A stretch of DNA of 64,000 nt, taken from positions 17,874 through 81,873 of IMG/VR virus record IMGVR_UViG_3300032157_000004. One strand, 5' to 3'. The notes under the pieces were generated by a model, which saw nothing but the letters and a program-made list of their open reading frames with translations, did no database searches and was not told where the DNA came from. Made by a program: the position numbers and the translations under genes. Every line of letters starts with the position of its first letter. Position 1 is the first letter of the stretch. Origin of the DNA: a virus. This document shows, piece by piece, positions 2,711-61,010 of the stretch.

Positions 2711-4710
2711 CCTACTGCCTCCCTTACCAAGTAGTCTTTCCAGTTAATCTTAGAGATATCCAGTTCCGTCTTGTATTCGCCCAGCGTACCGTAGCTATCT
2801 CCGCACTCGATATCGGTTAAGAACGGCACACCGAAAATATCTTCGCCTTCCATCACCCTAGCCAATACCGGAGGGGCAATCTCCATATATTCCTCTTTGA
2901 TCTCAAAGAGTGCTTCGTCATGGATGATGGAGATCAGATAGCCCCAATCCTGTGCCTCTAAAATTTTATTGGCACGCGTTAATACCACACTCAAAAAGTC
3001 ACCAGCGCCGCCCTGGATGATGGCATTGATACCTTTGTAGGCGTCATCTTCATAAAGAGGAAACCAGTAGCGACCAGACCAGTAGCGAATGCCGCCATCG
3101 GCTGTGATCTGTTCGACAATCTTGGCAAACCAGGCCAACAGCAATGGGAAAGTCGAGAAAAAAGCATCGCGTACCTCTTGAGCGTCGGCTTCAATTTCTA
3201 ATTTTTCAAAATATTCTTGTAAAGACTCGACCGACATGCCATAGCTCAGACCAAAGACTGTGGCTTTCGACCAATCTCTATGTTTCTTGTTCTCATCTGG
3301 CCCGCAGTCGCCCCAAATACGAATCGCAATCGACAGGTGGATATCCTTACGCTTTGCCATGTAGTCCAACAATGTCGGCTCTTGCGACAGAATAGCTAAC
3401 AGCCTAGCCTCTTGTTGTTTGTGGTCGATGGACACCATCTTGTAGCCAGGACGCACCGTGAGCGACTGGCGCAAGTTGTAGCTGCCCTTGCGCTCTACAC
3501 CTCCCGTATAGGACGATTCTAGGTCGTATTTGCGATATTTAGCTGCTAGTTGCTGTAGATTAGGATCAGAGCAGCTAAGACGCCCTGTGACGGCTCCTGT
3601 GGGGTTGAAGGAGGCATGTAGGTTGCCGTGTCTGTCTCTCAAAATTAAATATTTTTCGGCGTACTCTTTGAGCTTGACTGTCTCTCGGAGGACAATAATC
3701 TCTTTGCGTGCGGGATGTTTGGTTTTGAGCAGGATCGGCGTACCTGTGCATGTGCCTGTGTACATCTTGGCGGCTGCATTTTTTGATCCTGGTGGGAACG
3801 GACTGATGGGCATATCGATCCCTAAATCTTCATAGATAGCTTTGGATAGCTGTTTGGAAGATCGCCAGTCTACTTCTTTACCCAGCACATCATAGAGTTC
3901 TTCTTGCAGTTCACCGATGTTCTTATTGAACTCAGTGATAGCGGTATGACAAAATTTTTCTTCGAGACGGATTCCCCGCCACTCTATTTTCTGTAGTAGC
4001 CTTAGATACTCCATCTGACCCTTGACCATGCCCATCAAATCCATCTCACGGATCTTCGGCATGAGGACTTGGGCCAGTTGATACGTCACCACACAGTCAT
4101 TTGTACAATAATCCTCTAAAATTTTTTCTCCCCACATCCAGGGCTTTTTATTAAATTTTTTATCGGCCTTGCTGATGTGATCTCGTTTGCTGACTCCAGC
4201 CAGAAACTCAGCTTCGGCGGCTTCAAGAGATTTCAGTAAATTAGAGTCGATGAGATGTGTGAGGATAGCCGTGTCGAGTATTTTACAAGGAAGCTCCCAC
4301 AATCTCAAACCCAAAAAATGAGCATCAAATTTCAGATTGTGACCCACTAAAACCGTCTTGGGGTTCTGGCAGATCGCTTGGACTGCCGACAAGAAATGAG
4401 TAGCCCGAATCGGCTCTGGAATCGCATAAGTCTCCTGGTCGGGAACATAGGTCACATCTTTAATCTTGCGACCCCGTTTCGACTTGGAATAGTCCATTGT
4501 CCCATTCCATTCCTCACGCTTCTTAGGCTTGCCGTAGTCAGCCATTTGGTAGGAACAGGTATGGGCATAGCCGGAGATACCTGCCGCCTCACAATGGATG
4601 CCAATGCCGATCAACTGGTCGGAGTACCAGTGCAAGCCTGTCGTTTCCGTGTCGATGGCAAGAATCTCGCCTTCACACGCCAAGATATCTTCTCTAAGTA
4701 GCTTGGTCAT
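2707..4710 (-). CDS. polA: Family A DNA polymerase with 3'-5' exonuclease domain
   Basis: Exo motifs AIDTET and GHNLKFD; TGRLSCSDPNLQQ; motif A (SIDHKQQEARLLA), motif B (RDWSKATVFGLSYG), motif C (IHDEALFE). Confidence 0.95.
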   Translation of the reverse strand: MTKLLREDILACEGEILAIDTETTGLHWYSDQLIGIGIHCEAAGISGYAHTCSYQMADYGKPKKREEWNGTMDYSKSKRGRKIKDVTYVPDQETYAIPEPIRATHFLSAVQAICQNPKTVLVGHNLKFDAHFLGLRLWELPCKILDTAILTHLIDSNLLKSLEAAEAEFLAGVSKRDHISKADKKFNKKPWMWGEKILEDYCTNDCVVTYQLAQVLMPKIREMDLMGMVKGQMEYLRLLQKIEWRGIRLEEKFCHTAITEFNKNIGELQEELYDVLGKEVDWRSSKQLSKAIYEDLGIDMPISPFPPGSKNAAAKMYTGTCTGTPILLKTKHPARKEIIVLRETVKLKEYAEKYLILRDRHGNLHASFNPTGAVTGRLSCSDPNLQQLAAKYRKYDLESSYTGGVERKGSYNLRQSLTVRPGYKMVSIDHKQQEARLLAILSQEPTLLDYMAKRKDIHLSIAIRIWGDCGPDENKKHRDWSKATVFGLSYGMSVESLQEYFEKLEIEADAQEVRDAFFSTFPLLLAWFAKIVEQITADGGIRYWSGRYWFPLYEDDAYKGINAIIQGGAGDFLSVVLTRANKILEAQDWGYLISIIHDEALFEIKEEYMEIAPPVLARVMEGEDIFGVPFLTDIECGDSYGTLGEYKTELDISKINWKDYLVREAVG

Positions 4711-4987
4711 TGGCAATCTCAGTATTTCGGAAAATAATAAGCGGCGTCACTGTCCAGCCCCACTGTCGCATCGTTGCCAACGTAGCGAATGGGCCACAAC
4801 CGTCTAAGTAGCCTTCGCTGTTTAGCCAATGCACTCTAATTTTTTTACCAAGTTCGTCGTCGTCTCTCTCAAATAGAAACCACTCACCTTCGACTCTAGC
4901 CGCCTTACGCTGCAAAAATCTTTCATAAATTTTTTGCATGTCGTCATGGGTTGCCGGAGGAATGTCTTTATCTTTTGGTGTTTCCAT
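4694..4987 (-). CDS. Hypothetical protein
   Basis: 97-aa ORF overlapping both neighbours in the same-strand operon. Confidence 0.55.
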   Translation of the reverse strand: METPKDKDIPPATHDDMQKIYERFLQRKAARVEGEWFLFERDDDELGKKIRVHWLNSEGYLDGCGPFATLATMRQWGWTVTPLIIFRNTEIANDQAT

Positions 4988-6287: not shown

Positions 6288-7196
6288 TTATTCGGGAACT
6301 GCCGTGCCATCTTGAAACACTTGAATGTGCTTAATCAGGCTGTCATAGTGATTGGGAAACTCTCTGGCGGTTGTCTTGAGTCGGTCTTTGCCCATGTAGC
6401 CCGTTGTCATTTTGAATGACGACATATGCTGATCCGGCTGGTTGCTGCCCATCTTCTTAGGATAGAGATAGCCGATCATGTCTGTCATTCTTTGTACGTC
6501 CGGCCCTACCTGGCGACCGACAAACTTGGGAATGATCTGCGTTTCCTCATCGCCCACTTCCTTTGGCGTTGCCGCCGCCGTAAATACGATATGGAAAGGG
6601 AGTCGCAGAAACAAACGTAATACCCTGGCAAAGTCACGATTAGCCTTGCCGTAATCTGCCAGCGTCAACTGGTCGTTGTACTGGCGCTTGACTTTGGTGT
6701 AGCGAGACACAACATTCTGTGTGATATGTGTCTGTAGCTCATTGAGCGAGTCGATAACGATAGTTTTAACCGGAAACGGTCTGGAAGTATCCTTGAGCCG
6801 TTCCACGATCTTGTAGTAGAACTCGACAATCTGACTGTAGTCCGTAATATCTCTCTGTGGATTGGCTGGATAACGCCACACATCACCCACCAAGAGAGTC
6901 GAATGCATCCCACCCTCTAAGTCGAGAAAGAGAGGCTTGGGAAAAGTCGCCGCCATCGTTGTCTTGCCTGTGCCGGATACCCCATAGAGAAGGCACTTGA
7001 GACGCAGCTTAGAAGCCACCGCATCTTTATTCCAGACACCGAAAAATTCTGCATCTTCCGGCTCGGCATCTTCTAGCTCAGGCACTTCTTCGATATCAGC
7101 GCCTTCTTCATATTCCTCAAACTCATCATCAGCCTGGTCATCAACCTGATCGTCGGTCACTTCTTCATCTTCGACTTCTTGTACTCGGTCACTCAT
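6288..7196 (-). CDS. AAA_24/Sak4-like ATPase (phage recombination)
   Basis: LLYGVSGTGKTT Walker A, FLDLEGG, TIVIDSLNELQ; very acidic N-terminus. Confidence 0.8.
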   Translation of the reverse strand: MSDRVQEVEDEEVTDDQVDDQADDEFEEYEEGADIEEVPELEDAEPEDAEFFGVWNKDAVASKLRLKCLLYGVSGTGKTTMAATFPKPLFLDLEGGMHSTLLVGDVWRYPANPQRDITDYSQIVEFYYKIVERLKDTSRPFPVKTIVIDSLNELQTHITQNVVSRYTKVKRQYNDQLTLADYGKANRDFARVLRLFLRLPFHIVFTAAATPKEVGDEETQIIPKFVGRQVGPDVQRMTDMIGYLYPKKMGSNQPDQHMSSFKMTTGYMGKDRLKTTAREFPNHYDSLIKHIQVFQDGTAVPE

Positions 7197-7197
7197 G

Positions 7198-7941
7198 TTA
7201 AGCCTTCTTAGTCTGATATGGACTGTCTACGCATTGACGATAGAACCCACAGTCCCAACAACAATCTTTTGTCCAGTTAGGATAAATTTCTAATTTTTTC
7301 TTGTCTGCTTTTTTAATCTCCTTGACCTGGGGAACCAGACTGTCCAAATAGGCTTTGATAAAATATTTCTGTCTGGTTGCCGTCGCTCGTACTGTAATTT
7401 TTTCTGTGTTGCCTGTCTCCAGGTTGACAATGTTGTAAATCAACCCGAAAACCTCTATGCCTAGAAGATGGGCCAGCGCCAGATAGTGAGACACTTGGCT
7501 ATCCACTTCCAGGTTGGAAGTCTGGTGAGATTTTTGAAATTTGTGATCGACAATATAATTTTTTCCCTGTTTGTTGACCAGCAAGTCCCAAATACCCATC
7601 AACTTGATCCCGTTGTAGCTGGCTTCGACCGTGCGCTCTACCGCCAATACTTTCCACTGGTCGTAGATGTTGGCCCAGTTAAAGTAGCGCACAAGGATAT
7701 GGTCTAGCTCATGCATTCTTTTGATAGCATCGTCAGTCTGCGGCGCATAATCGACCCAGGCTGCTCCCGCTGCTTCTTTGATCGTGCTGCCGGAGTAAAA
7801 TTTAGCCAGCGCCACATGCGCCGCATGACCCCTTTGTAGAGCTAAAGAGTCCTTTTGCGGGACAGGATCGACATAAGTTAAGTGGTACTTCAACCTACAC
7901 CGTCTAAAGGTGGTCAAGCGCGTATTGGAATAACTGGTCAT
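7198..7941 (-). CDS. PD-(D/E)XK (RecB/Cas4-like) exonuclease
   Basis: SNTRLTTFRRCRLKY, GHAAH, GIWDLL...IVDHK, C-terminal CCWDCGFYRQC. Confidence 0.8.
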   Translation of the reverse strand: MTSYSNTRLTTFRRCRLKYHLTYVDPVPQKDSLALQRGHAAHVALAKFYSGSTIKEAAGAAWVDYAPQTDDAIKRMHELDHILVRYFNWANIYDQWKVLAVERTVEASYNGIKLMGIWDLLVNKQGKNYIVDHKFQKSHQTSNLEVDSQVSHYLALAHLLGIEVFGLIYNIVNLETGNTEKITVRATATRQKYFIKAYLDSLVPQVKEIKKADKKKLEIYPNWTKDCCWDCGFYRQCVDSPYQTKKA

Positions 7942-9583: not shown

Positions 9584-10990
9584 CTATTCGGAATAGTGTG
9601 TTGAATCATCGTCAGTCAGGTACAGAACTTCAACGTCTCTTTGAGTTGAAAGCGGTCGAAGTTTAGCTTCTTCCATGATTACCTGTTTGAGTTGAATCAA
9701 CTCAACACCATCGGAGTGCTGGACAGTAATCGTGTCAAAGCCAAAGTTCATTATGGGGTCGAATTCCAGCAGCATGACTGACTCTTTCACTTGTCGTTTC
9801 TCCTTCATATCAGGCTTGCGGTTGCGTGTCGAGTACAGCATCTTGGCGCGGATAGCACGAAAGCTATACCCGCGACCCAATCGGTTGACGACTTTGGCGA
9901 CGCCATTCAAGGCTTCCGTGACAGCATTGGTGACAGGATGATCAAAGTAAGCAAAGGCTTCGGCCTCCCAATTGGTGAGTGCAGTCATGAGATCACCGAA
10001 TGCCCAGGCCAGATCGTTGGCGCGGACTTCTGCGGCCCACTCTCGGTAGTGAATTATGGCGGTTTGTTTGTCTGTCTCTGTGTCCCACAGGTCGTAGATG
10101 GCTTCCTTGAGTTCGTAGGCAACCGCCAATTCAGGGAAGGTTTCCAACCAAGTAGCCAGCAGAATTGTCTTATTGGGTGGCAACTCAGACCGGCGACGAA
10201 AGAGCAGGAACCTATCGTGCATCAGGGTACGACGTTGCCGGTCGGTCAATCCCTCTCTGATACGCTTGCGAACCTTGTCAATGGCCTGGTTTGCCATTCT
10301 GACGACATGGAATTTGTCAATGACGATGATTGCCTGTGGAAGCACGGCCCTGACAGCATCTCGATAAGGTATCCACATATCCATTGCGACCAATTCAATT
10401 TGGTCACGGTTGGGCAGGGCCATAAGTCGCTTGGCTACCTCTGGCTTTTTTCGACCAGGCAGGATGTCAATGAGTGTGCGAGCCTCAACATTGGTCAGCA
10501 CGCAACGGGCATTGCCAAGAAGATGCAACTCGTCAATGCCCAACCATCGTGGCGTGTTGAACTGGATGGCTTGTTCCAAGTGGTCAACGTGCCGACCAAA
10601 AATGTTACGAATAGTGCCTTCATCTACCCCAATGTCGGCGGCCAGGCTGGTAAAGGTACGTTCCAATGCCTTTGTCTGTACCCATTTGACCAGTCGTTTT
10701 GCTGCTCTGTGGTGGTCATCCAGATCGTCAAGCTGCTCAAAGAATGTGCGCTGGCACTCAAGGCACTTCCACTTCTTGCGCTGCACCAACAGTCTGACTT
10801 TCTTGCCGTGGATGGGAAGATCGCGGAATGGTTGATGCTTCGTGCCGTAACGATGCAACTTTGGATGGATGACGCCACAAGACAAGCAAACCTCTGGCTG
10901 CACTGTGTACCGAGCCTTGATGATGTATTCGTCGTGGGCTTCTTCGACCTCGGTTACGTCCCACTTGGGGAGGTTGAGAATGTCAGTCAT
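9584..10990 (-). CDS. ISL3-family DDE transposase
   Basis: Zn finger CLSC...WKCLEC, GIDE, VAMDMWIPY, IDKFHVV, TNAVTEALN; stop codon falls inside the terminal IR. Confidence 0.93.
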   Translation of the reverse strand: MTDILNLPKWDVTEVEEAHDEYIIKARYTVQPEVCLSCGVIHPKLHRYGTKHQPFRDLPIHGKKVRLLVQRKKWKCLECQRTFFEQLDDLDDHHRAAKRLVKWVQTKALERTFTSLAADIGVDEGTIRNIFGRHVDHLEQAIQFNTPRWLGIDELHLLGNARCVLTNVEARTLIDILPGRKKPEVAKRLMALPNRDQIELVAMDMWIPYRDAVRAVLPQAIIVIDKFHVVRMANQAIDKVRKRIREGLTDRQRRTLMHDRFLLFRRRSELPPNKTILLATWLETFPELAVAYELKEAIYDLWDTETDKQTAIIHYREWAAEVRANDLAWAFGDLMTALTNWEAEAFAYFDHPVTNAVTEALNGVAKVVNRLGRGYSFRAIRAKMLYSTRNRKPDMKEKRQVKESVMLLEFDPIMNFGFDTITVQHSDGVELIQLKQVIMEEAKLRPLSTQRDVEVLYLTDDDSTHYSE

Positions 10991-11836: not shown

Positions 11837-13546
11837 TCAGTATTCCGAATAGCCATTTTTTTTCTTATCAAAGACCGCCAGTAAATCGGCGGCTGTAACC
11901 TTTTTAATCATTCCCACTCGGTAGTCTAGGGTTGAATGAATGAGATGATCGATGGTCTGGTAGCCGTCAACGGTAACAGACCGCATATTGACAATGACTG
12001 GGGATTCGGTTGTTCCAATCCTACGGTTTCTGTGTAGACACTGGAAGTAAGAATCATCGTACATCCGTTCAACAAAAAATGCCGTTCTCGCTTTGGTGAG
12101 TGTGAAGCCGAATTTTCCAACTTGGTTATTAAGCACCAGAACATCAAGTTCTCCGTTCTGGAACGCATCTACCATCTTGTTGCGATCTTCCATCTTCGTA
12201 GCGCCGTTGGCGAGAGCCACCCGCTTCTTAATCTTGCTGAAGTGATCTCTCAACAACTCACCTGTCTTGATGAAATTTACCCACACCAGATAAGGGCCAG
12301 GATAGAAACTCATCAGTTCCGGTAGAGCATCCCACTTTCCCGCCGAATCGACACCACCCACCAAGAGCGGGTTAGAAGCAACTTGAACAGAGCGCACCAT
12401 CAAACTTAGATGGTTGTTGACTGTGACGTACTCACCAGGATCGACTGTTGCTAATTCAACCCGTAACTTTTTTCTCAGTTCTTCGTAGGCTGCATCCTGC
12501 TTGGGCAGCATGGGGATATTGATATCCTCCATGATCCAATCGGGAATGTCGGCAACATCGTCTTGGGTACGGGAAAAATAAATGTCAGCAAAATTTTTCT
12601 TGATTTCTTTTTCTGCGTTGGGCTTGTTAGCAACCAGCTTACTGCCCCACTCATCTTTGTTTACTATAACATATTTCTCGACAAATCTCCAGTAGCTCGG
12701 ATACCCTTTAGGCTTGAGAATGTGGAATTGATGCCACATATCATCCAAGAGTTTTGTCGCTGGAGCGCCTGTGAGAAGCCAGCAAACATCAATCACACTC
12801 GCCAGTTCCTTAATAGCTTTGGAACGAAGGCTGTCATGGTTTTTGTACATGATCGACTCGTCCAGAATTAGACACTCATAAGGCGGATCATAGGCCATGA
12901 ACTCGTTTAGATGTTTGACGACTGTCTCTGGATTGGTGATACCCCACCAAGCTTCACTATCTTCTAACAATGTACCGCCGCCCAACCCTGATGTAACTTT
13001 GCGATGCATCACAGCCGGAAAAGGCTTGACTGGCAGCTTATCTCCCCATTTTCGCAACTCGCCATCCCAATAATAAAGAAGGGAAGCAGGACATACTACC
13101 AAAATATTTTTAAAATTTTTCTTTCCCGCCGCATCTGCCGCCGTCAGTGTTTTGCCCAATCCAGGCGACAGGGAGAGCATCGCCCTATCATGGCGCACCA
13201 AAAAATCAGAAGCCTCTTGTTGGTAATCAAACAAGACACTGTTTTCATCCTTTTCCCAAGCTTCGACATAGGGTGGTCGTTCTCGACGCAGCCAATTGTC
13301 AACCTTCTTGGTAGGAACAAAGGAGAGTCCCGACCAGATGAGGTCGTAATAATTCTCTAAGGTAGGGATTGCCATCATAACAAACTGGTCTTTAACCGCC
13401 CTCCAGTTGGTTACTTCTAACAGAACCCTGACCCTCGGATCACCCCAATCCACAGGTCGGAAGATGAGCATACCTTGCGTATACTGCATCCCTAGCATCC
13501 CAGGCTCTAATATTTTGGCTAGTTCTTTAGGAGAGTAATCCTTCAT
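11837..13546 (-). CDS. SNF2-family (SF2) helicase; last codons supplied by the IS end
   Basis: LSPGLGKT, LILDES, LLTGAP, helicase-C motifs; terminal GYSEY* is read from the IS IR. Confidence 0.88.
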   Translation of the reverse strand: MKDYSPKELAKILEPGMLGMQYTQGMLIFRPVDWGDPRVRVLLEVTNWRAVKDQFVMMAIPTLENYYDLIWSGLSFVPTKKVDNWLRRERPPYVEAWEKDENSVLFDYQQEASDFLVRHDRAMLSLSPGLGKTLTAADAAGKKNFKNILVVCPASLLYYWDGELRKWGDKLPVKPFPAVMHRKVTSGLGGGTLLEDSEAWWGITNPETVVKHLNEFMAYDPPYECLILDESIMYKNHDSLRSKAIKELASVIDVCWLLTGAPATKLLDDMWHQFHILKPKGYPSYWRFVEKYVIVNKDEWGSKLVANKPNAEKEIKKNFADIYFSRTQDDVADIPDWIMEDINIPMLPKQDAAYEELRKKLRVELATVDPGEYVTVNNHLSLMVRSVQVASNPLLVGGVDSAGKWDALPELMSFYPGPYLVWVNFIKTGELLRDHFSKIKKRVALANGATKMEDRNKMVDAFQNGELDVLVLNNQVGKFGFTLTKARTAFFVERMYDDSYFQCLHRNRRIGTTESPVIVNMRSVTVDGYQTIDHLIHSTLDYRVGMIKKVTAADLLAVFDKKKNGYSEY

Positions 13547-13832
13547 CAGATAAAAGTCCGCTATTTTCTAGCAACGAATCAGAGGGCAGAATATCCAAAT
13601 GAGTCGGTCGGAAGCATCTAGCTCCGCCGCCGTCCATGTTAACCCATATCTGCACAACTTTTGTCTCACGATTAATGTAGACATTGTAGATTGTGCCTAC
13701 ATAGTCCTCAGACCTACTAGCCCATGCCAGAGTGATACCCTCCTTCACCTTAACACGCACTCCATTTAGAGAAGAAACCCTCTCAGCGGCCTCCCCTATT
13801 GTCATTACTTCATCACCAAACTTTTTTTCCAT
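13527..13832 (-). CDS. Hypothetical protein
   Basis: 101-aa ORF with RBS, overlapping the helicase start. Confidence 0.6.
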   Translation of the reverse strand: MEKKFGDEVMTIGEAAERVSSLNGVRVKVKEGITLAWASRSEDYVGTIYNVYINRETKVVQIWVNMDGGGARCFRPTHLDILPSDSLLENSGLLSDEGLLS

Positions 13833-13869: not shown

Positions 13870-13904
13870 TTTGTGCGACCAGGAGAACCCACTGGTCGCA
13901 CAAA
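13870..13904 (-). terminator. Intrinsic terminator after the Ro60 gene
   Basis: 13-bp stem tttgtgcgaccag/ctggtcgcacaaa directly after the stop, with a T-run downstream on the minus strand. Confidence 0.65.
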
Positions 13905-15227
13905 TTACATTTCCCCAGCCTTTTCCATTTCGACAATATAACGGAACACCGACTCTGAGAAGCCGTCGATATGAATCCAGTCACCATAGCCAACGCCATT
14001 TTGGTAGCTGGCAACGTTGATCAGATAGCCCTTGACACCCTTCGGAACCGACAGGATGCCATCATGTGTCTGTTCGTCCGTGATGACGATGATACGGTCA
14101 TACTTGGTCTTGGCGTTGATCTCCTTGAGAGAATTAGCCAGATAAGTACCGCCTCTATTCGACTTTTCAATCGCATCACGCAGCGCAAAACCTCTACGTG
14201 GCGGCACAAGAACAGCCTTGTCAGCGAACGACCACACCTCTACATCATCGCACATTTCACGTCCGACCATTGCCACACCACAGGCAGCGTCGGTGCGTTC
14301 CATATCCGACTTGGCGGAGAGCGGCGCACGCATCGAACCGGACATATCGACCAGGATGACTGTCTTACCCGCCAGCTTCAACTCACCAGCCGCCTCGAAA
14401 AATTTTTCTTCCAAAGCTGGCTCCAACTGCGGCACTTCTCTAGCTGCGGCAATAAAGCGGAAAGGCAGAACACGATAGATGGACATATCGTGAATCGCTT
14501 GCATGATCGTGCCATTATGCACACCCGCCTGTTGCATGTTTCTTAAATTTCTAAGCAGCGCCAACGCTCCCAACTTCTTCTCAACCAGAAGGCGAGTCCA
14601 CTTGTTCAACTTGGACACGCCATCATTTCTGGATAACTCGACTTCCCAGGTGTCAGGAGTCGGCAACTCACCCTTAACTGCTTGACGCCACAACTCGGCT
14701 TGATCTGCATTATCAGGTTCAGGGCGCACGATACGAAACACGTCCTTCAAAGAAACAGACCCTTGACGGTCGTACTTGGCAAGCGCATAGGCGTCAAACT
14801 TACGCAAAGCCTGTGCCAGTCCATCACGAACACAGTGGGCGACAGGAACCTTACCCTCCGCCCAATACATCGCCATGAATTCCATCGGCTCGTCGGCACG
14901 TTGGATCACCTTCGCCAATGTGTCAGCCACATAGGGACGATGTGTTTCATGGCGTGCCATTTCACGAACCAGGAACAGCGGCGCATGGCGCAGCTTCATT
15001 TGCTCTCTGGCTTCGACAGCCATTGCCGCTACCTTCGCCGGAGCCACCAACGGTACACTGTTGGCAAGCCGCTTGGCAATTTCTTGACCATCTTCGTAGA
15101 ATGTCTTTTCCCACAGAAAGCAGGACATCAAAGACCGACGCAATTGTTGCTCGGCGTTGATGCGGTGCGCCTTCCCCCCTTCGTGAGTCAAGATTGGTGG
15201 TTGATTTGGCTTCACGTTTGTTTTCAT
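13905..15227 (-). CDS. rsr: Ro60/Rsr (TROVE + vWA) RNA-binding protein
   Basis: THEGG, LRR..MSCFLWE.TFYEDG, KLRHAPL, FDAYALAKY, PDTWEVELS, ALLRNLRNM, LPFRFIAA; vWA MIDAS DMSGSM and ITDEQ. Confidence 0.92.
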   Translation of the reverse strand: MKTNVKPNQPPILTHEGGKAHRINAEQQLRRSLMSCFLWEKTFYEDGQEIAKRLANSVPLVAPAKVAAMAVEAREQMKLRHAPLFLVREMARHETHRPYVADTLAKVIQRADEPMEFMAMYWAEGKVPVAHCVRDGLAQALRKFDAYALAKYDRQGSVSLKDVFRIVRPEPDNADQAELWRQAVKGELPTPDTWEVELSRNDGVSKLNKWTRLLVEKKLGALALLRNLRNMQQAGVHNGTIMQAIHDMSIYRVLPFRFIAAAREVPQLEPALEEKFFEAAGELKLAGKTVILVDMSGSMRAPLSAKSDMERTDAACGVAMVGREMCDDVEVWSFADKAVLVPPRRGFALRDAIEKSNRGGTYLANSLKEINAKTKYDRIIVITDEQTHDGILSVPKGVKGYLINVASYQNGVGYGDWIHIDGFSESVFRYIVEMEKAGEM

Positions 15228-15251
15228 TTTCTTTTTTCTCCTGAAAAATTT

Positions 15252-15575
15252 TTAGCCGTAAATCAGCCCAGCTTTACCGCTGACTGTCATCACACGATTG
15301 CCATTGTACTGCTTGCCTTTACGCAAGTCGGGCCTACGTTTAGCCTTAGACAAGACCAGCACAGGCTCGTCGCCTCTCTGGTATGTTCTCGGCGTCAACT
15401 GTCTGTAGCCCTGACTGACAAGATAACGACCATAACAGGCGTTGGCTTCTTGTCCAGTTGAGTGAGTCTTGGGCAAGTGCAGAGAGCGCAAACCCTTATT
15501 GGTTGCGCTAAGAGCCTGTCGTGTCCCTGAACAATGATCAAAAGGTGTATGACACATAAATTTATCTTGGCTCAT
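15252..15575 (-). CDS. Basic Cys/His-containing hypothetical protein between the RNA cluster and Ro60
   Basis: RBS caggagagaaaaccATG at 15575; CHTPFDHC...H.....A..CY.RYL..QGY. Confidence 0.7.
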   Translation of the reverse strand: MSQDKFMCHTPFDHCSGTRQALSATNKGLRSLHLPKTHSTGQEANACYGRYLVSQGYRQLTPRTYQRGDEPVLVLSKAKRRPDLRKGKQYNGNRVMTVSGKAGLIYG

Positions 15576-15676
15576 GGTTTTCTCTCCTGACGTTTTCTCT
15601 AAAAAGTTAATCTCAGCCACACTCTACATTACCACGTACGGCTCAGTCAATCCCCAAATAGCTAAATCTTTCAAAA

Positions 15677-15766
15677 TTTGTTGAGGGAAGAAGCGGCTAG
15701 GGCTTGGTATCAAAGCGTGGTTAGACACTGATAGAGAAGTATCCCTAACCTACACCACTCAACAAA
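15677..15766 (-). ncRNA. Y-RNA-like structured RNA without a tRNA domain
   Basis: Closing stem UUUGUUGAG/CUCAACAAA; core UGGUGUAGG opposite CCGCUUCUUCC; inner helix UUAGGG/CCCUAG; same core as the 16775-17000 RNA; ~450 bp upstream of Ro60. Confidence 0.65.
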
Positions 15767-15868
15767 ATAATTTTCTGGAGAGAATGCCAGTGTTGGCGGC
15801 TGGCACTCTCCACGTTCGAGACAGACCTTACAGGAGTTCACCGATGATCCCCCGAAACATCGGCTAGG

Positions 15869-15940
15869 CTGCTACGGTAGGACTCGAACCTACATTTTTC
15901 CGGTTAACAGCCGGATGCCTTGCCAGTCGGCCACATAGCA
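15869..15940 (-). tRNA. tRNA-Asn(GTT)
   Basis: Acceptor TGCTATG/CGTAGCA, G73; anticodon arm TCCGG-CTGTTAA-CCGGA; T arm GTAGG-TTCGAGT-CCTAC; CCA not fully encoded (CCT). Confidence 0.88.
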
Positions 15941-16102
15941 GTAATGGGTAGGGAGATACTGATCAGGTATCCTTATCGGCTTCCCTACCGAACCGAGTCT
16001 GTATCCAGACACACTAGCTGACTGTCTCTCCATTTGGCCGGAGACACGTTGTATAGCCTCTGGCCTTTGACGCCGCCAGTGACGTAAACAGATCTGTTTA
16101 GG

Positions 16103-16178
16103 CGAGACTGATCAGATTTGAACTGACGATCTTCTGTTCGACAAACAGACGCATTGGCCCTGGCTATGCTACAGTCCC
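16103..16178 (-). tRNA. tRNA-Asp(GTC)
   Basis: Acceptor GGGACTG/CAGTCTC, G73; anticodon arm TCTGT-TTGTCGA-ACAGA; T arm GTCAG-TTCAAAT-CTGAT; followed by CCT. Confidence 0.88.
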
Positions 16179-16265
16179 GTAAAGAGGCTTTATAGCGGGC
16201 TGCAACCCTTGCCTCTTGCACTACACTTATCCGAAAACGCCCACTTTCTTAATGGAGGTGAAAAA

Positions 16266-16320
16266 CTCATCGGCTGTATCTTCGCGCTCCGACTTGATTA
16301 AAGTTGGAACAGCCGATGAG
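16266..16320 (-). other. Long hairpin directly 3' of tRNA-Pro (terminator-like or separate small RNA)
   Basis: 12-bp perfect stem ctcatcggctgt/acagccgatgag with an inner 8-bp hairpin, followed by TTTTT on the minus strand. Confidence 0.5.
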
Positions 16321-16321
16321 A

Positions 16322-16396
16322 TGGTCAAGGTGGCAGGAATCGAACCTGCGTGTACTTGCTCCCAAAGCAAGCGGGTGGCCTCTACCCTACACCCTG
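16322..16396 (-). tRNA. tRNA-Pro(TGG)
   Basis: Acceptor CAGGGTG/CACCTTG, A73, encoded CCA; anticodon arm CTTGC-TTTGGGA-GCAAG; T arm GCAGG-TTCGATT-CCTGC. Confidence 0.9.
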
Positions 16397-16578
16397 ATAA
16401 GCCTCGAAAGGGAGTTACCCTCTAACGATGTCGGGCATACAGCACCGTCTAGTCTTTCCTAGAAGCCAAGAAACACGTCGCTTAGTGAACGGATTAAAAA
16501 GTAAGCGTTGGTTTTCAGACCTCACTTTTTAATTAACGTAGCCGTACCTGCGGAATATTTTAGGCATATTCATACCAG

Positions 16579-16647
16579 TGGCGGGGGCCGGATTTGAACC
16601 TGCGACCACCCTCTTAACAGGAGAAGTAACCCTTATCTAACACCACC
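16579..16647 (-). ncRNA. tRNA-like RNA (Asn-type anticodon arm and T arm) whose 5' part is the Y-motif instead of a D arm
   Basis: GGTGGTG-TTAGATAAGGGTTAC-TTCTC CTGTTAA GAGGG-TGGTC-GCAGG TTCAAAT CCGGC-CCCCGCCA; no D stem. Confidence 0.6.
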
Positions 16648-16671
16648 GAACAATTCAGTTGTTAAAGTAAA

Positions 16672-16768
16672 CACCTTCGGATGGTGTCGAACCATCTACT
16701 CGGCTTGTCAGGCTTTGCGTATCCCCTCCCTCCAGAGCGACAAACTTCTGTCGAGAGCGACCGAAGAT
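16672..16768 (-). ncRNA. tRNA-like element: acceptor stem plus T arm with a non-canonical middle
   Basis: ATCTTCG/CGAAGGT 7-bp stem, G discriminator, T arm GATGG-TTCGACA-CCATC; inner hairpin CGACA/TGTCG; no canonical D or anticodon arm. Confidence 0.4.
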
Positions 16769-16774
16769 GATAAT

Positions 16775-17000
16775 ATCAGGGGAAGGAGGCGAAAACAGAT
16801 ATTTTCGGTGCTACCGTTACACTATCTCCGCAGACGCTTTAGAGAGTGGATGCCTTCTGTGTCCAGAAGGCACTCTAAAGCTGACTTCAAAAGTGTTAAT
16901 GCTTGCAACGGCCACTTTTGTAGTTTGGAGCGGAGAGTGGGACTCGAACCCACACTCGTCTTTTGGCATAAGAAGTAACTGTTTCCTATCACCACCTGAT
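16775..17000 (-). ncRNA. YrlA-like Y RNA containing a circularly permuted tRNA-Gly(GCC)
   Basis: Closing stem AUCAGG/CCUGAU; tRNA 3' part (anticodon arm to CCA, 16926-16974) precedes the 5' part (GCGGAGA plus D arm, 16807-16831); perfect 7-bp acceptor; promoter puts +1 at 17000. Confidence 0.8.
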
Positions 17001-17006
17001 GACATC

Positions 17007-17035
17007 ACTATAGCATGGCGTCGGCGGCTTGTCTA
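17007..17035 (-). promoter_or_regulatory. Sigma70-type promoter of the RNA-Ro60 operon
   Basis: TAGACA (17035-30), 17 bp, TATAGT (17012-07) with TGn; +1 predicted at 17000, the first base of the Y-RNA stem. Confidence 0.72.
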
Positions 17036-17057
17036 TCCCCAATAGGCTACATATTTT

Positions 17058-17246
17058 CAACAGATTTAGAAGAACGGCGGCGACTTCCATAGCCTAATGG
17101 CTAAATCTGTTAAACGCCCGCAACCCCGCAAGTAGTTAATACTATATTATTGCTATTGGGTAAGGGAAAATAGTATATATAGGCTCTATAGGTAATAGGG
17201 GAGGAGTGACTACTTGTTGTAGTGGTGCGTAAACAACAGATTTAGA
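17058..17246. repeat. Three copies of AACAGATTTAG (operator- or iteron-like)
   Basis: caacagatttaga at 17058-17070 and 17234-17246 (direct); ctaaatctgtt at 17101-17111 (inverted); AT-rich stretch between them. Confidence 0.5.
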
Positions 17247-17837: not shown

Positions 17838-19022
17838 TCACACTTCGGTTCCCCTAAGTCCAAGCCGTGCGCTACGCATGTCGTATTTAGAACTCATACC
17901 GCCAGAAAATTGCACAGCATAGGGTGTTCGCATGTCGAACTGTACCGATTCAATTCTGAGCATCCTGGGATCACGATGTAAGTCAGAAAAAACTGGCCCC
18001 AGCCCTGGTAAGAAGTCAGAAAAAAATATCCACTTGCCAGGTCGAATTCGCCAGGGAGAAACAATACTGCCACCAGAGTCGAGAATAAGTCTCCTGGGAT
18101 CGGCAATCTCGATGGTGTAGTCTACCTCACTCGACCCTGGCCCATAGACAGGCTTGCGATTTGAGTAGATGCCAAAGTAATGCCGGATGTTGTTAGCGTC
18201 ACCCATTGCCGTCACACCGCGAATGTGTTCGTTAGCAAGCTGGTCATCGTTCTCGTAGAGCGGCACAGCGGACGTATTTAAGGCGATCTCGCTGTGATCG
18301 CTAGATATCCAGCCTGAGTTAAGATGTGCGCTTAGAACAGCCTTAATGCGGTCGGAGATGGTTATTGTGCCTGTGCCTGGAGTCGTGTAGTTATAGGGAT
18401 AGGTCAATGTCCGATACCAGCCGACGCAGTTGATAGTCAAAGAAATTTCTTCGTTGGAAAAAGAAAAATTTGAAGAAATTTCTGGATGACCATGTTCGGT
18501 CAACCACATATCGACTAGCTGGTCAGAATTGGCGTCAGTCACGCCCGCCAAAGATAAAATTTTAAACCAGATACCCCAGTCGGATTGTGATGCTGTGTTG
18601 TTAACGGTCGGTGTTTTCTTGCGGACACCGATCTGAGGCGGATAAACCGATGTGTCCACACCGGAATAGATTGCAAAAACACGGTTGGAGATATCGGTCA
18701 CTGGCCCTAGTGTAAGGGAAAGTCCTGCCTGATTAACATTGATTGAATCAACAAAACCTTCCCACACCGAGTCTAAAAAATTATCATAGACGATGATAGG
18801 TCGAAACAGACCGTCCTGCACCCACTCGTCTAAAGATGCCTGGTTTTCCGACAAAGAAAAAGAAGCTGTGTCGAAACCGCCGAAAGCATTGATGGTGTGT
18901 CGCCAGTCCTGAACGGAAACGTCTAAATTTCCTCTCCAGTTGCCGCCTTTTGGCAGTCTCTCAAAGTAGGAAATCGTAAAATTTTGACTGGAAAAATTAC
19001 TGCCGATAGACGCCCCAAACAC
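17838..19022 (-). CDS. Minor tail (hub/baseplate-like) protein
   Basis: 394 aa, third gene after the tape measure; call is by position only. Confidence 0.55.
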   Translation of the reverse strand: MFGASIGSNFSSQNFTISYFERLPKGGNWRGNLDVSVQDWRHTINAFGGFDTASFSLSENQASLDEWVQDGLFRPIIVYDNFLDSVWEGFVDSINVNQAGLSLTLGPVTDISNRVFAIYSGVDTSVYPPQIGVRKKTPTVNNTASQSDWGIWFKILSLAGVTDANSDQLVDMWLTEHGHPEISSNFSFSNEEISLTINCVGWYRTLTYPYNYTTPGTGTITISDRIKAVLSAHLNSGWISSDHSEIALNTSAVPLYENDDQLANEHIRGVTAMGDANNIRHYFGIYSNRKPVYGPGSSEVDYTIEIADPRRLILDSGGSIVSPWRIRPGKWIFFSDFLPGLGPVFSDLHRDPRMLRIESVQFDMRTPYAVQFSGGMSSKYDMRSARLGLRGTEV

Positions 19023-56021: not shown

Positions 56022-56307
56022 GTTCTCTCTCCCTCCTGGCTGCGATTGCCCACAGCATAATTTTCAACTCATGCTTGCGTGTCCAACTTGCGTTATGCAC
56101 CTTATCGTGACACTGGCGACAAAGGGAGATGCAGTTCTCTCTGGTTGTATGCAGTTTCACATAGTCAATGTGGTGAACATCCATTCGCCCCGCACAATTA
56201 CAGATAGCACAACAATAGTTATCCCGCTGGCGAATATATTTTTTAAATTCTTCCGTCCACTCAGGCGGATAGCCTTGATTTTTTAATTTTCTATTCGATC
56301 TTGGCAC
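55912..56307 (-). CDS. HNH endonuclease between terminase and portal
   Basis: IRQRDNYCCAIC...DVHHIDY...ENCISLCRQCH. Confidence 0.8.
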   Translation of the reverse strand: MPRSNRKLKNQGYPPEWTEEFKKYIRQRDNYCCAICNCAGRMDVHHIDYVKLHTTRENCISLCRQCHDKVHNASWTRKHELKIMLWAIAARRERERAANIERTRQITGNRLRAPGTAVGQFKAATIFKSKK

Positions 56308-58046
56308 TAGCTAGACGCTCCCTGTACCCATCCTTGCCCAATGGGACAAATACTAGCGATGTGGGCATAGGTTTCTGCATGAGCATAGTGATCTGCACGC
56401 TTGTTGTCAATATAGGTTGCAGTAAGGATTCCCGATGTTCCTACTTCTTTCTTGATCTTGATGGGAACCCGCATCTGGTTGTAATACTCTTTGATGTTTC
56501 TGGCATGGGCAGGGAGAGCCGACAAATGCCCGTAAAAGCCCGCAAACATGGCGTCTAAGGCGCGTGTACGATCAATCAGAACAGTCTTTTCAAGTTGGTT
56601 CCAGACTGCGTATTCTTCTTTTTTATTGCCGACTGGTTGGTTAGGATAGTAGGCAAGCCATACTTTTGCAAAAGGATATTTTTCCTGAAATTTTCTCGCT
56701 TGGGTTGTCTCAGGCAATGCATCGACCACAATCGTTGTAGGTCGATAAATTTTTACCAAATTATCCAGCGTGTCCCAGTCGGATTCACCCGCATAAAGCT
56801 GGTAAGTCTCTTTGGAAAGAAGGTGAACACCTGTTCGCACTACTACATGCAGGGTGTTGCCGATATCGACCCCCATATAGCAGTTCATATAGTGGTTAGG
56901 CCCATGCCCGTATTCTCTGCGACACAGGTCTAAATCCTCAGAAGTTAAGCTGCCCCCTTTGGGAACATAGGGCAAACCCAAGTCCTGATTCCAGGCTTCG
57001 CGTTTTTTCGTCTCGTCTACTGTCTGTAGATCTGTGACAATGCTGGGAATATTGCTAAAAGGCGAAAAGAGCTTGGTCAAGTGAAAGCCTACTTTTTCTA
57101 CAGAAGGAAATTCAGCTACCCACTCTCCCTCTCCCAGACGGTTTAATTTCCACCCACAATGACGACAGACAGGCCACGCATTGTTCTGGTTTTGACCATG
57201 CCAAGCAATCGGACGTCCTAACTTATCCCACTCGGTTACGATGTCGTCAATGGTGAGCGGCTGCTTTTGACCGCAATGATCGCATTTGATAAACCACTGG
57301 CGCTTGTCAGTTTCAGAATATTCGGCGTCGATACCGTAGCCAGGATAAGTCGGAGTGGAGACATAGAGGACAGTCGCCAGTCGTGAGTGACCAAGCCGCT
57401 TCTGAGTAATAGCGGGCGCTCTTTGATCGAGTTCATCTAGTTCATCCAATACAATCATGTCGGCGTCAATCGACTTGAGCTTAGGCGCGTTGCCGTCCGG
57501 CTGTACCTGAGAACCACGAAAATAAAGATGGCGATGTCGAAAGCGTTTGAGGGTAATACGGTCGGAGCCTTTTAGACCGCTGGCACTGGAGCCATCGATC
57601 AGAATTTGAGTAAGGTACTCGGAGGCTTCAATCGCAGGGCCAAGCCGTGCTGTAGAAAAGTCAGAGACAGTCTGCTCAGTCGGAAAAATATAAAGCACGT
57701 TGCCGTCTAGCTGATCACAGGTATGAATAGCCTTGCTCAACAGCCACTCGGAAACACCTGCTTGGCTGGATTTCATCACCACAATCTCTTTGGCTGTACA
57801 CTTATACAGGTCAATAAGATACTTGTGGTGTTCGATATCAAAGGGACGGTTAGGAATCAAAAAAGGACGCTTCTTAATCGTCCATTCCAGTAAGTCAGGA
57901 AGATCTTCTTTGGGCATAGTTCGCAGAGCGATCTCTTTGGGATCTTCCCGTTCTGGGGGAGCGAAGTCAAACCAGCCTGTATCCAGATTCAGGTCTAGCA
58001 AGCCTCCAATCTCTCCAACCAGTTCTGCTGTATTAACCTTAGCCAT
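56307..58046 (-). CDS. Terminase large subunit (lambda GpA-like)
   Basis: VVMKSSQAGVSE, LKSIDADMIVLDELDE, STPT, WFIKCDHCG, C-terminal DHYAHAE nuclease motif. Confidence 0.9.
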   Translation of the reverse strand: MAKVNTAELVGEIGGLLDLNLDTGWFDFAPPEREDPKEIALRTMPKEDLPDLLEWTIKKRPFLIPNRPFDIEHHKYLIDLYKCTAKEIVVMKSSQAGVSEWLLSKAIHTCDQLDGNVLYIFPTEQTVSDFSTARLGPAIEASEYLTQILIDGSSASGLKGSDRITLKRFRHRHLYFRGSQVQPDGNAPKLKSIDADMIVLDELDELDQRAPAITQKRLGHSRLATVLYVSTPTYPGYGIDAEYSETDKRQWFIKCDHCGQKQPLTIDDIVTEWDKLGRPIAWHGQNQNNAWPVCRHCGWKLNRLGEGEWVAEFPSVEKVGFHLTKLFSPFSNIPSIVTDLQTVDETKKREAWNQDLGLPYVPKGGSLTSEDLDLCRREYGHGPNHYMNCYMGVDIGNTLHVVVRTGVHLLSKETYQLYAGESDWDTLDNLVKIYRPTTIVVDALPETTQARKFQEKYPFAKVWLAYYPNQPVGNKKEEYAVWNQLEKTVLIDRTRALDAMFAGFYGHLSALPAHARNIKEYYNQMRVPIKIKKEVGTSGILTATYIDNKRADHYAHAETYAHIASICPIGQGWVQGASS

Positions 58047-60918: not shown

Positions 60919-61010
60919 GCATAAATAGTATACTATCCAGAGTAGAATGTAAAGAGGCAACTTTAGCCATTTGGCGATATACACAGCGGTTCTTATATGC
61001 TATACTACGC
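60919..61010. promoter_or_regulatory. Divergent promoter region between the leftward and rightward gene blocks
   Basis: Minus strand TTTACA-17-TACTAT; plus strand extended -10 TGcTATACT; gene orientation switches here. Confidence 0.45.

Follow-up and report, generated by a model that had tools for sequence, protein, structure and literature searches.

A phage Ro60 locus with handle-bearing Y RNAs and tRNAs

We analyzed a 64,000-nucleotide stretch of viral DNA, which we call the window (positions 17,874 to 81,873 of IMG/VR record IMGVR_UViG_3300032157_000004). At positions 13,870 to 17,035 of the window lies a gene for Ro60, a protein that forms a ring and binds RNA, and ahead of it is a series of structured RNAs. 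Ro60 and the Y RNAs are conserved from bacteria to humans, and in humans they are an autoantigen in lupus and Sjogren syndrome. We consider it very probable that this is a real phage locus for Ro60, Y RNAs, and tRNAs.

Ro60 and the RNA block ahead of it

All features of the Ro60 unit are on the minus strand. In the direction of transcription, they are:

17035-17050 (-), upstream promoter element GTAGCCTATTGGGGAT, which abuts the -35 box of P1
17035-17007 (-), promoter P1, sigma-70-type: TAGACA, 17 nucleotides, TATAGT, TG-extended
17000-16775 (-), Y1, a Y RNA that resembles a circularly permuted tRNA-Gly(GCC) held in a handle
16696-16680 (-), orphan T-arm-like hairpin GAUGG-UUCGACA-CCAUC in the spacer between Y1 and Y2, read from the sequence
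16653-16579 (-), Y2, in which a 5' handle runs into an anticodon arm of the Asn type (loop CUGUUAA), followed by a variable loop, a T arm, and CCCCGCC-A as the pseudo-acceptor strand
16578-16397 (-), spacer D, 182 nucleotides between Y2 and tRNA-Pro, with a predicted multi-branch fold
16396-16322 (-), tRNA-Pro(UGG), with its CCA encoded
16320-16261 (-), hairpin F, a 12-bp stem with a 31-nucleotide inner part, then U5
16178-16101 (-), tRNA-Asp(GUC)
16100-15941 (-), spacer H, structured
15940-15867 (-), tRNA-Asn(GUU)
15864-15777 (-), spacer J, with hairpins at 15864-15840 and 15811-15777
15765-15678 (-), Y3, a short Y RNA that resembles YrlB and is made up of the handle alone
15650-15621 (-), or 15621-15665 with its upstream element TTAGCTATTTGGGGAT, promoter P2: TTGACT, 18 nucleotides, TAGAGT
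15575-15252 (-), a basic protein of 107 amino acids that contains Cys and His; ATG at 15575, ribosome binding site AGGAGA
15227-13905 (-), Ro60, 440 amino acids: a TROVE ring and a vWA domain with the MIDAS motif DxSxS
13901-13873 (-), a 13-bp hairpin, then GUCUAA, then U6 at 13863-13858

The initial annotation, which was made from the sequence alone, had called a complete Ro60 (TROVE-vWA) gene, and this is correct. The protein matches TROVE (PF05731; 67.2 bits with a cut-off of 23, E = 2e-18) and VWA_2 (28.9 bits, cut-off 27) in Pfam, and its score against vWA_Ro60 (27.3) is just below the cut-off of 27.7. It also matches PHROG 850 ("RNA-binding protein", E = 6e-44). Its best solved relative is the Ro60 of Thermus phage phiLo (PDB 9KOP and 9L5Y), which is similar over residues 13-433 (phmmer E = 5e-33). 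The DMSGS of our protein aligns with the DVSGS of 9L5Y, and the acidic stretch DEQTHD is conserved.

The small basic open reading frame (ORF) is also present, with its true start corrected to the ATG at 15575. The protein has no Pfam or PHROG family and no informative neighbor in the protein atlas, where its model is poor (pLDDT 0.47). Among 5.8 billion proteins it has a single homolog. This led us to L021, a contig from another soil run, which has the same gene order and is 80-88% identical to the window at the nucleotide level. The small protein is 96% identical between the window and L021, as compared to 85% for Ro60, so it is under purifying selection and a real gene. It is limited to the lineage of the window and L021, so it is not a general part of the system. 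When we predicted a complex of Ro60 with the small protein, the score was 0.00, with an uncertain fold for the partner, which speaks neither for nor against an interaction.

The block ahead of Ro60 (about 1.4 kb) contains three Y RNAs, two of them on tRNA shapes, mixed with three ordinary tRNAs. Two Y-like RNAs and two tRNA-like RNAs had been proposed here. These elements are real, but the Y-like and the tRNA-like RNAs are the same objects, namely the three handle-bearing Y RNAs (Y1, Y2, and Y3). They are 0.45-1.8 kb upstream of Ro60 and co-oriented with it, as expected from YrlA RNAs (within 4 kb, same strand). The block had also been described as almost continuously structured, which is moderately true: z-scores for structure are -5.3 for Y1, -3.7 for Y3, -3.2 for spacer H, -2.6 for spacer D (16430-16578), -2.2 for the spacer with hairpin F, and -2.1 for spacer J, but -0.4 for the spacer between Y1 and Y2 and -0.9 for the Y2 stretch.

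The three ordinary tRNAs were all found again by ARAGORN and by the Rfam tRNA model (threshold 29 bits; tRNA-Pro, 56.3 bits; tRNA-Asp, 59.9 bits; tRNA-Asn, 65 bits), and each has a 7-nucleotide anticodon loop. The anticodon and T stems of tRNA-Asn are fully compensated in L021. We also note that tRNA-Pro has C1-G72 and A73, which are bacterial proline features, together with a G3.U70 wobble pair, and that these are identical in L021. Since G3.U70 is the classical identity element for alanyl-tRNA synthetase, this tRNA could have a dual identity or be mischarged.

A conserved handle and its relation to known Y RNAs

The handle has the pattern GGUGGUGNAG / stem / UACUUC / stem / UUCCCC, with the core AGUUACUUC. 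A closing helix comes first, with (U)GGUGNNAG as the 5' loop; then there are a second helix, UACUUC, which is invariant, and a 3' loop with UUCC(C) at its end. In Y3, these are the closing helix UUGUUGAG/CUCAACAA, the loop UGGUGUAG, stem 2 (GGUUAGGG/CCCUAGCC), AUACUUC, and the 3' loop GCUUCUUCC. A G-C pair in stem 2 of Y3 is A-U in L021, which is a compensatory change.

The motif GG(U/C)G(G/Y)NNAG-N5-7-(G)(U/A)UACUUC is repeated 2-8 times beside Ro60 genes that are 30-53% identical to ours, in phages of Xanthomonas, Caulobacter, Brevundimonas, Rhizobium, Microcystis, and Bacteroides (crAss001) and in uncultured viral contigs. Among the related loci with flanking DNA, the only one that lacks the motif beside Ro60 is from Ralstonia phage RsoM2USA. 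A search of IMG/VR with the DNA pattern, and no protein, retrieved two loci, both of which have a Ro60-like gene on the same strand.

We aligned sixteen short handle members, including Y3 (alignment A3), and built a model from them (R1). In A3, 15 of the 18 base pairs change on both sides, and the share of paired cells is 80.7%, compared with 59.4% after shuffling. The handle has a covariation score of 0.52, versus 0.20 when shuffled (0/500), and controls in which the alignment was slid gave at most 0.25. R1 has 61 matches across the related loci, always on the strand of Ro60. Across five complete phage genomes (751 kb), R1 has 20 hits with E ≤ 0.01, and all of these are within about 1.3 kb of Ro60 and co-oriented with it. 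The handle RNAs are not annotated in the published genomes (8 hits in Caulobacter phage CcrPW, 5 in Xanthomonas phage MET23-P3, 3 in Rhizobium phage RHph_TM39, and 2 each in crAss001 and Microcystis phage Mvi-JY20). In the 89-kb genome that the window comes from, R1 finds only Y3 (65.1 bits, E about 1e-14) and Y1. BLAST of the RNA block against the related loci and the phage collection gave tRNA-level matches only.

The family thus has two covarying helices that flank GGUGNNAG, UACUUC, and UUCC loops. The RNA motifs are kept beside homologous Ro60 genes, and the proposal of a phage unit of Ro60, Y RNAs, and tRNAs is borne out. We predict, from the sequences, that the handle is the docking site for Ro60, and we consider this probable.

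One of the handle RNAs of MET23-P3 is called as tRNA-Asn by ARAGORN and has no annotation in the record. In Kikimora and Mvi-JY20, the annotated tRNA that is immediately upstream of Ro60 may be a Y RNA.

In Y1, the handle (closing helix AUCAGG/CCUGAU, 5' loop UGGUGAUAG, stem 2 GGAAACAG/CUGUUUUC, UUACUUC, and 3' loop GCCUCCUUCC) holds a tRNA. The 5' part of the head is an anticodon arm (16975-16957; loop AUGCCAA, with the anticodon GCC), a short variable loop, and a perfect T arm (16953-16937). These are followed by the 3' strand of the acceptor stem with its discriminator and CCA (UCUCCGC-U-CCA, 16936-16926), and then by a 94-nucleotide linker in the acceptor loop, with hairpins at 16920-16888 and 16881-16836. 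The 5' strand of the acceptor stem (GCGGAGA, 16831-16825), UA, a canonical D arm (GUGU-AACGGUA-GCAC, 16822-16808), and the 3' handle (16798-16775) complete the RNA. The order is tRNA positions 27-76, the linker, and positions 1-26, so this is a circularly permuted, whole tRNA-Gly that is joined to the handle at 26/27.

The minimum free energy of Y1 is -82.9 kcal/mol. Its tRNA-like element (16995-16929) scores 22.8 bits on the Rfam tRNA model, which is below the threshold. Y1 was not in the seed of R1, and with filters off, R1 aligned both strands of its handle across a 160-nucleotide insert (29 bits, E = 2.5e-6). In L021, a C-G pair of stem 2 is replaced by G-C and a U-A pair of the T stem is replaced by C-G, both of which are compensatory, and the linker cannot be aligned. 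The identity set of bacterial glycyl-tRNA synthetase (GlyRS) is G1-C72, C2-G71, G3-C70, U73, C35, and C36; Y1 has all three of these base pairs, U73, and C35-C36. A permuted tRNA topology of the YrlA type is present in this one RNA: only Y1 has a T arm, an acceptor-like stem, and a D arm in this order inside the closing helix, with the 94-nucleotide linker between the acceptor strands.

Y2 is called as tRNA-Asn by ARAGORN, and its tRNA-like element (16647-16579) has only 19.3 bits on the Rfam tRNA model. It scores 10.7 bits on R1, as just the 5' half of the handle is present. Y2 is homologous to an RNA of Xanthomonas phage MET23-P3 that scores as YrlA, and the same Asn loop, CUGUUAA, is found without change in four distant phages. 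In 10 phage RNAs of the tRNA-bearing class, covariation is seen in the anticodon-like hairpin (V) and the T arm (0.54 versus 0.20 when shuffled, 0/500), and the loops of the V hairpins vary among phages (GCU, AUU, and loops that are not anticodons). Y2 resembles one RNA of L021 at that RNA's 5' part and a second one in the 3' context, as though a deletion of about 1 kb had fused two paralogous Y RNAs that are still separate in L021.

This kind of system is already known (Chen et al. 2014; RF02553; phiLo). Chen et al. (2014, PMC4201824) reported 254 bacteria and 22 phages with YrlA-like RNAs close to Ro60. As in the YrlA/YrlB-Rsr loci of bacteria and mycobacteriophages, several RNAs are within 2 kb of Ro60 and on the same strand; Y1 has the permuted order (T arm, acceptor-like stem, D arm) inside a closing stem; and the RNAs without a tRNA part (YrlB-like) match Y3. 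The acceptor stem of Y1 has 7 bp, as does that of YrlA from M. smegmatis, which is cut by RNase P and has CCA added (PMC4201824). By analogy, Y1 may itself be cleaved at its acceptor stem. By sequence, our RNAs differ from YrlA in the lack of GNCGAA; in an extra outer module of the handle (GGUGGUGNAG ... UUCCCC); in a hairpin V that is a true look-alike of an anticodon arm, so that the head is a whole tRNA; in the long linker in the acceptor loop of Y1; and in the true tRNAs that are interleaved with the Y RNAs. The RF02553 model aligns the UACUUC region to the AUGCUU part of its consensus. On this model, relatives of our RNAs score 30-52 bits (E down to 8e-11), all below the cut-off of 69 bits.

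Three other systems are worth comparing. Phage phiLo (NAR 2025, PMC12135203) encodes the closest solved protein and has its Y RNA genes directly upstream of Ro60, but Yrl1 and Yrl2 were chosen by a CGAA motif and a stem-bulge-stem shape, there are two RNAs and no tRNAs, and our Ro60 is 60 residues shorter. The rsr-yrlBA-rtcBA operon of Salmonella (PMC7790460) likewise transcribes Ro60 and Y RNAs together, in a unit with ties to tRNA biology, but our phage lacks RtcB, and its promoters are of the sigma-70 type instead of being under sigma-54/RtcR control. Phage Bas63 (Felix O1-like) has a Ro60-like gene, gp130, that adjoins tRNA and tRNA-like genes, but its similarity to Ro60 is structural only and no Y RNAs have been defined there. 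Gp130 counters the ppl defense, and no other phenotype of a phage Ro60-like protein has been reported from experiments (bioRxiv 10.1101/2024.10.10.617714).

Transcription signals, the close relative, and the surrounding genome

The near-consensus promoter that had been noticed at the head of the block, P1, has 10/12 matches in a promoter scan and is kept in L021, where the -10 box is identical and the -35 box is TGGACA. From the geometry of the promoter, we infer that transcription starts at about 17000, which is the first base of Y1. P2 has 9/12 matches, is of the same class as P1, and directly precedes the genes for the 107-amino-acid protein and Ro60. P2 is also conserved in L021, and the upstream element of P1 is identical there. 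In the 89-kb genome, the element TTAGCYATTTGGSGAT abuts the -35 box of exactly three promoter-like sites: P1, P2, and a plus-strand site at 60963. Because such a rare element is common to three sites, P1 and P2 are likely to be real and under joint control, possibly as an early class. The third promoter (60963-61010, plus strand; ATACAC-17-TATACT) has the upstream element TTAGCCATTTGGCGAT, as at P1 and P2, and heads a block of plus-strand genes. All three look like one regulated class of promoters. An 11-bp inverted repeat (17059-17111, minus strand; AACAGATTTAG ... CTAAATCTGTT) lies between the upstream gene and P1, with an incomplete copy of the promoter element inside it; it could be the terminator of the upstream operon or an operator.

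A terminator had been proposed after Ro60. There is a strong hairpin (ΔG = -22.3, z = -6.9), and it is kept in L021, but its U run starts only 7-11 nucleotides past the stem, our scan for terminators did not call it, and the next co-oriented gene starts directly past it, at 13832. With a late U run and co-oriented genes immediately downstream, the unit is not clearly self-contained. The idea of one self-contained operon does not hold up, as there are two promoters, the terminator is not canonical, and the genes carry on downstream.

The array of L021 is larger, with six handle RNAs and four tRNAs, including an extra tRNA-Ile. The handle RNAs of L021 include a canonical YrlA-like RNA of 135 nucleotides (30 bits on RF02553) and a second permuted tRNA with a long linker. 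By comparison of the sequences, the array in the window is a reduced version of the one in L021, and CcrPW, with 8 handle RNAs, and MET23-P3, with 5, both exceed it, so neither the count nor the diversity of its RNAs is out of the ordinary, contrary to the initial annotation. L021 also carries an inserted gene for an HNH endonuclease (6885-7352), immediately past Ro60 and before the hairpin, an ORF of about 21 codons with a strong ribosome binding site inside the RNA array (3883-3950), and an ORF of 84 amino acids between tRNA-Asp and tRNA-Asn (4592-4846). The region of the RNA array is a hot spot for insertions.

The spacers vary in how well they are conserved. From the T loop of Y2 through spacer D to the CCA of tRNA-Pro (about 16600-16322, versus 4047-4322 of L021), the two sequences are about 100% identical over 268 nucleotides, with flanks at 80-88%, which suggests a recent exchange of an RNA cassette. 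Spacer D has no match in Rfam. Spacer H cannot be aligned to L021, which has a 358-nucleotide stretch there that holds the 84-amino-acid ORF. Both stems of spacer J are kept, and the apical part of the second hairpin differs. The spacer between Y1 and Y2 has a different T-arm-like hairpin in L021 (CUGGG-UUCGAAU-CCCAG) and is otherwise unalignable. We considered hairpin F as an internal terminator and rejected this, as the hairpin in L021, which has another stem sequence, lacks the U run; hairpin F is more likely to be a processing or structural element.

The source genome is a single virus record of 89,078 bp (47.8% G+C, complete by the estimate of CheckV) from a soil metagenome. The minus strand carries nearly all of the genes from about 60.6 kb to the start of the window, and the Ro60 unit is between morphogenesis genes upstream and replication genes downstream:

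56307-58046, terminase, on the upstream side of the Ro60 unit, alongside tail and virion genes
11837-13546, SNF2 helicase, on the downstream side, with Sak4, an exonuclease, and a family-A DNA polymerase

The replication block also contains a protein of 468 amino acids (9584-10990, minus strand) that matches a PHROG "transposase" family (E = 2.5e-124).

Possible roles of the Ro60 particle

The explanation that we favor, with somewhat better than even confidence, is that the locus encodes a Ro60 ribonucleoprotein whose tRNA-shaped heads engage host proteins. P1 would fire at the first base of a multi-RNA precursor of about 1.4 kb. Host RNase P (at the 5' ends of tRNAs) and RNase Z, RNase E, or exonucleases (at the 3' ends) would cut this precursor into three tRNAs and three Y RNAs, and P2 would express the small basic protein and Ro60. 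The handle would dock on Ro60 and present a variable head: the permuted tRNA-Gly of Y1, the tRNA-Asn without a D arm of Y2, or none for Y3. The heads would then recruit or titrate host proteins that recognize tRNAs, most likely exoribonucleases such as PNPase or enzymes that modify or cleave tRNAs. In this way, the Ro60 particle might redirect RNA decay or blunt a tRNA-directed host defense early in infection, while the co-transcribed tRNAs would top up translation. We infer the transcription starts, the processing, the binding of the handle by Ro60, and the effect on the host. With Bas63 gp130 as the one published precedent, a role in phage-host conflict is plausible, although we would put it at somewhat below an even chance.

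Several observations weigh against this explanation. On 15550-17150, Rfam's YrlA model (RF02553; gathering threshold of 69 bits) has no match at E ≤ 10, and on the whole genome its best score is 10.9 bits, on the T arm of a tRNA. The published GNCGAAN0-1G motif of YrlA is absent; the invariant motif here is UACUUC within (G)GUUACUUC. The T stem of Y2 has an A.G mismatch, and scans for duplexes, a regular expression for UGGCGGG, and a model search with filters off gave no convincing 3' handle, acceptor partner, or D arm for Y2, which looks like a recombination product and may be non-functional. Four other tRNAs (Leu-UAA, Arg-UCU, Gln-UUG, and Lys-UUU) are encoded elsewhere in the genome and outside the window (C1:10345-13342, minus strand), so the supply of tRNAs is not specific to the Ro60 unit, and there is no handle RNA near that group. 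The 89-kb genome has no RtcB (PF01139; control genomes were positive), no Rnl2-type ligase, and no CCA-adding enzyme, which leaves the unit with no link to RNA repair. The sequence is present in two soil DNA runs only, and no RNA run contains sequence from the Ro60 locus. Finally, the terminase is at most 26% identical to its matches in the phage collection, which come from many host genera, so no host is indicated.

Two more specific accounts fit about equally well, and each is a minority possibility. One is a counter-measure against anticodon nucleases, in which the tRNAs would replace cleaved host tRNAs, the tRNA-shaped Y RNAs would be decoys, and Ro60 would handle the fragments. Y2 and its counterparts in three distant phages keep the exact Asn-type loop, and two of the three tRNAs (Asp-GUC and Asn-GUU) are in the GUN anticodon group, which is the target set of colicin E5-type nucleases. 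The activity of the Ro60-like protein of Bas63 against a defense system (10.1101/2024.10.10.617714) also favors this account, as do surveys of jumbo phages that group TROVE proteins with RNA-repair and counter-defense gear (PMC7824862). However, we did not find a ligase, a kinase/phosphatase, or RtcB in the genome, tRNA-Pro and the Gly-like Y1 do not fit the specificity of a single nuclease, the V-hairpin loops differ among phages, and ppl, the target in Bas63, is predicted to act on DNA and not on tRNA. The other account is a RYPER-type particle, in which the Y RNAs would tether the phage Ro60 to PNPase or another 3'-5' exonuclease of the host, so that structured host RNAs are degraded or phage RNAs are trimmed, with no link to defense. 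This is the best-documented function of Ro60 in bacteria, from the Rsr-Yrn1-PNPase complex of D. radiodurans (PMC4201824), and the Ro60 of phiLo, our closest solved relative, binds phage Y RNAs and forms ternary complexes with Yrl RNAs and host PNPase (PMC12135203). But no PNPase-binding element is defined for the handle family, and a simple tether would not explain the conserved anticodon-like loops or the tRNA identity features of Y1.

It is unlikely that Y1 is a working permuted (split) tRNA-Gly gene whose two pieces form a chargeable tRNA, with the handle as just a scaffold for folding or processing. The acceptor stem (GCGGAGA/UCUCCGC) is a perfect 7 bp; the discriminator U73, an encoded CCA, the anticodon GCC, and canonical D and T loops are present; Y1 matches the GlyRS identity set; and in L021, all of the tRNA parts are either unchanged or changed with compensation, whereas the linker varies freely. 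Yet Y3 and the A3 family carry the same handle with no tRNA, and the handle occurs beside Ro60 alone; the CCA is not conserved, as L021 has UCCUU at this position; and the handle would stay attached at the 26/27 junction, which would clash with the normal use of a tRNA. Far less probable still, and strongly disfavored, is that the tRNA-like elements are decaying pseudogenes or spacers in a phage tRNA cluster of the ordinary kind, next to Ro60 by chance. Degenerate copies are frequent in phage tRNA clusters, several of the spacers are not conserved, and Y2 has a mismatch and no D arm, but decay does not account for a handle whose helices covary, which is kept in phages of Xanthomonas, Caulobacter, Brevundimonas, Rhizobium, Microcystis, and Bacteroides and which, in whole genomes, is found only beside Ro60, nor for the compensatory changes in Y1 and Y3.

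Going beyond the particle with tRNA-shaped heads that we favor, we can speculate, on rather long odds, that the UACUUC-handle RNAs are an undescribed and widespread branch of phage Y RNAs with modular docking, in which a constant handle carries exchangeable heads. Y1 might then be cut by RNase P and 3' nucleases to a two-piece tRNA-Gly that is tethered to Ro60 and is perhaps chargeable, and cassettes such as the 268-nucleotide block might pass from phage to phage and turn the particle against other tRNA-directed defenses of the host.

This locus and its relatives define a family of handle-bearing RNAs that current Rfam models miss and that is unannotated in well-known phages (crAss001, the Caulobacter phages of the CcrPW/CcrColossus type, and phages of Xanthomonas, Rhizobium, and Microcystis), several of which can be cultured. 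For annotation, this means that calls of "tRNA-Asn" or "tRNA-Gly" by ARAGORN-type tools beside phage Ro60 genes can be Y RNAs. And the permuted tRNA-Gly head of Y1, with its identity features intact, shows unusually clearly a whole tRNA that is grafted onto a putative Ro60 docking stem.

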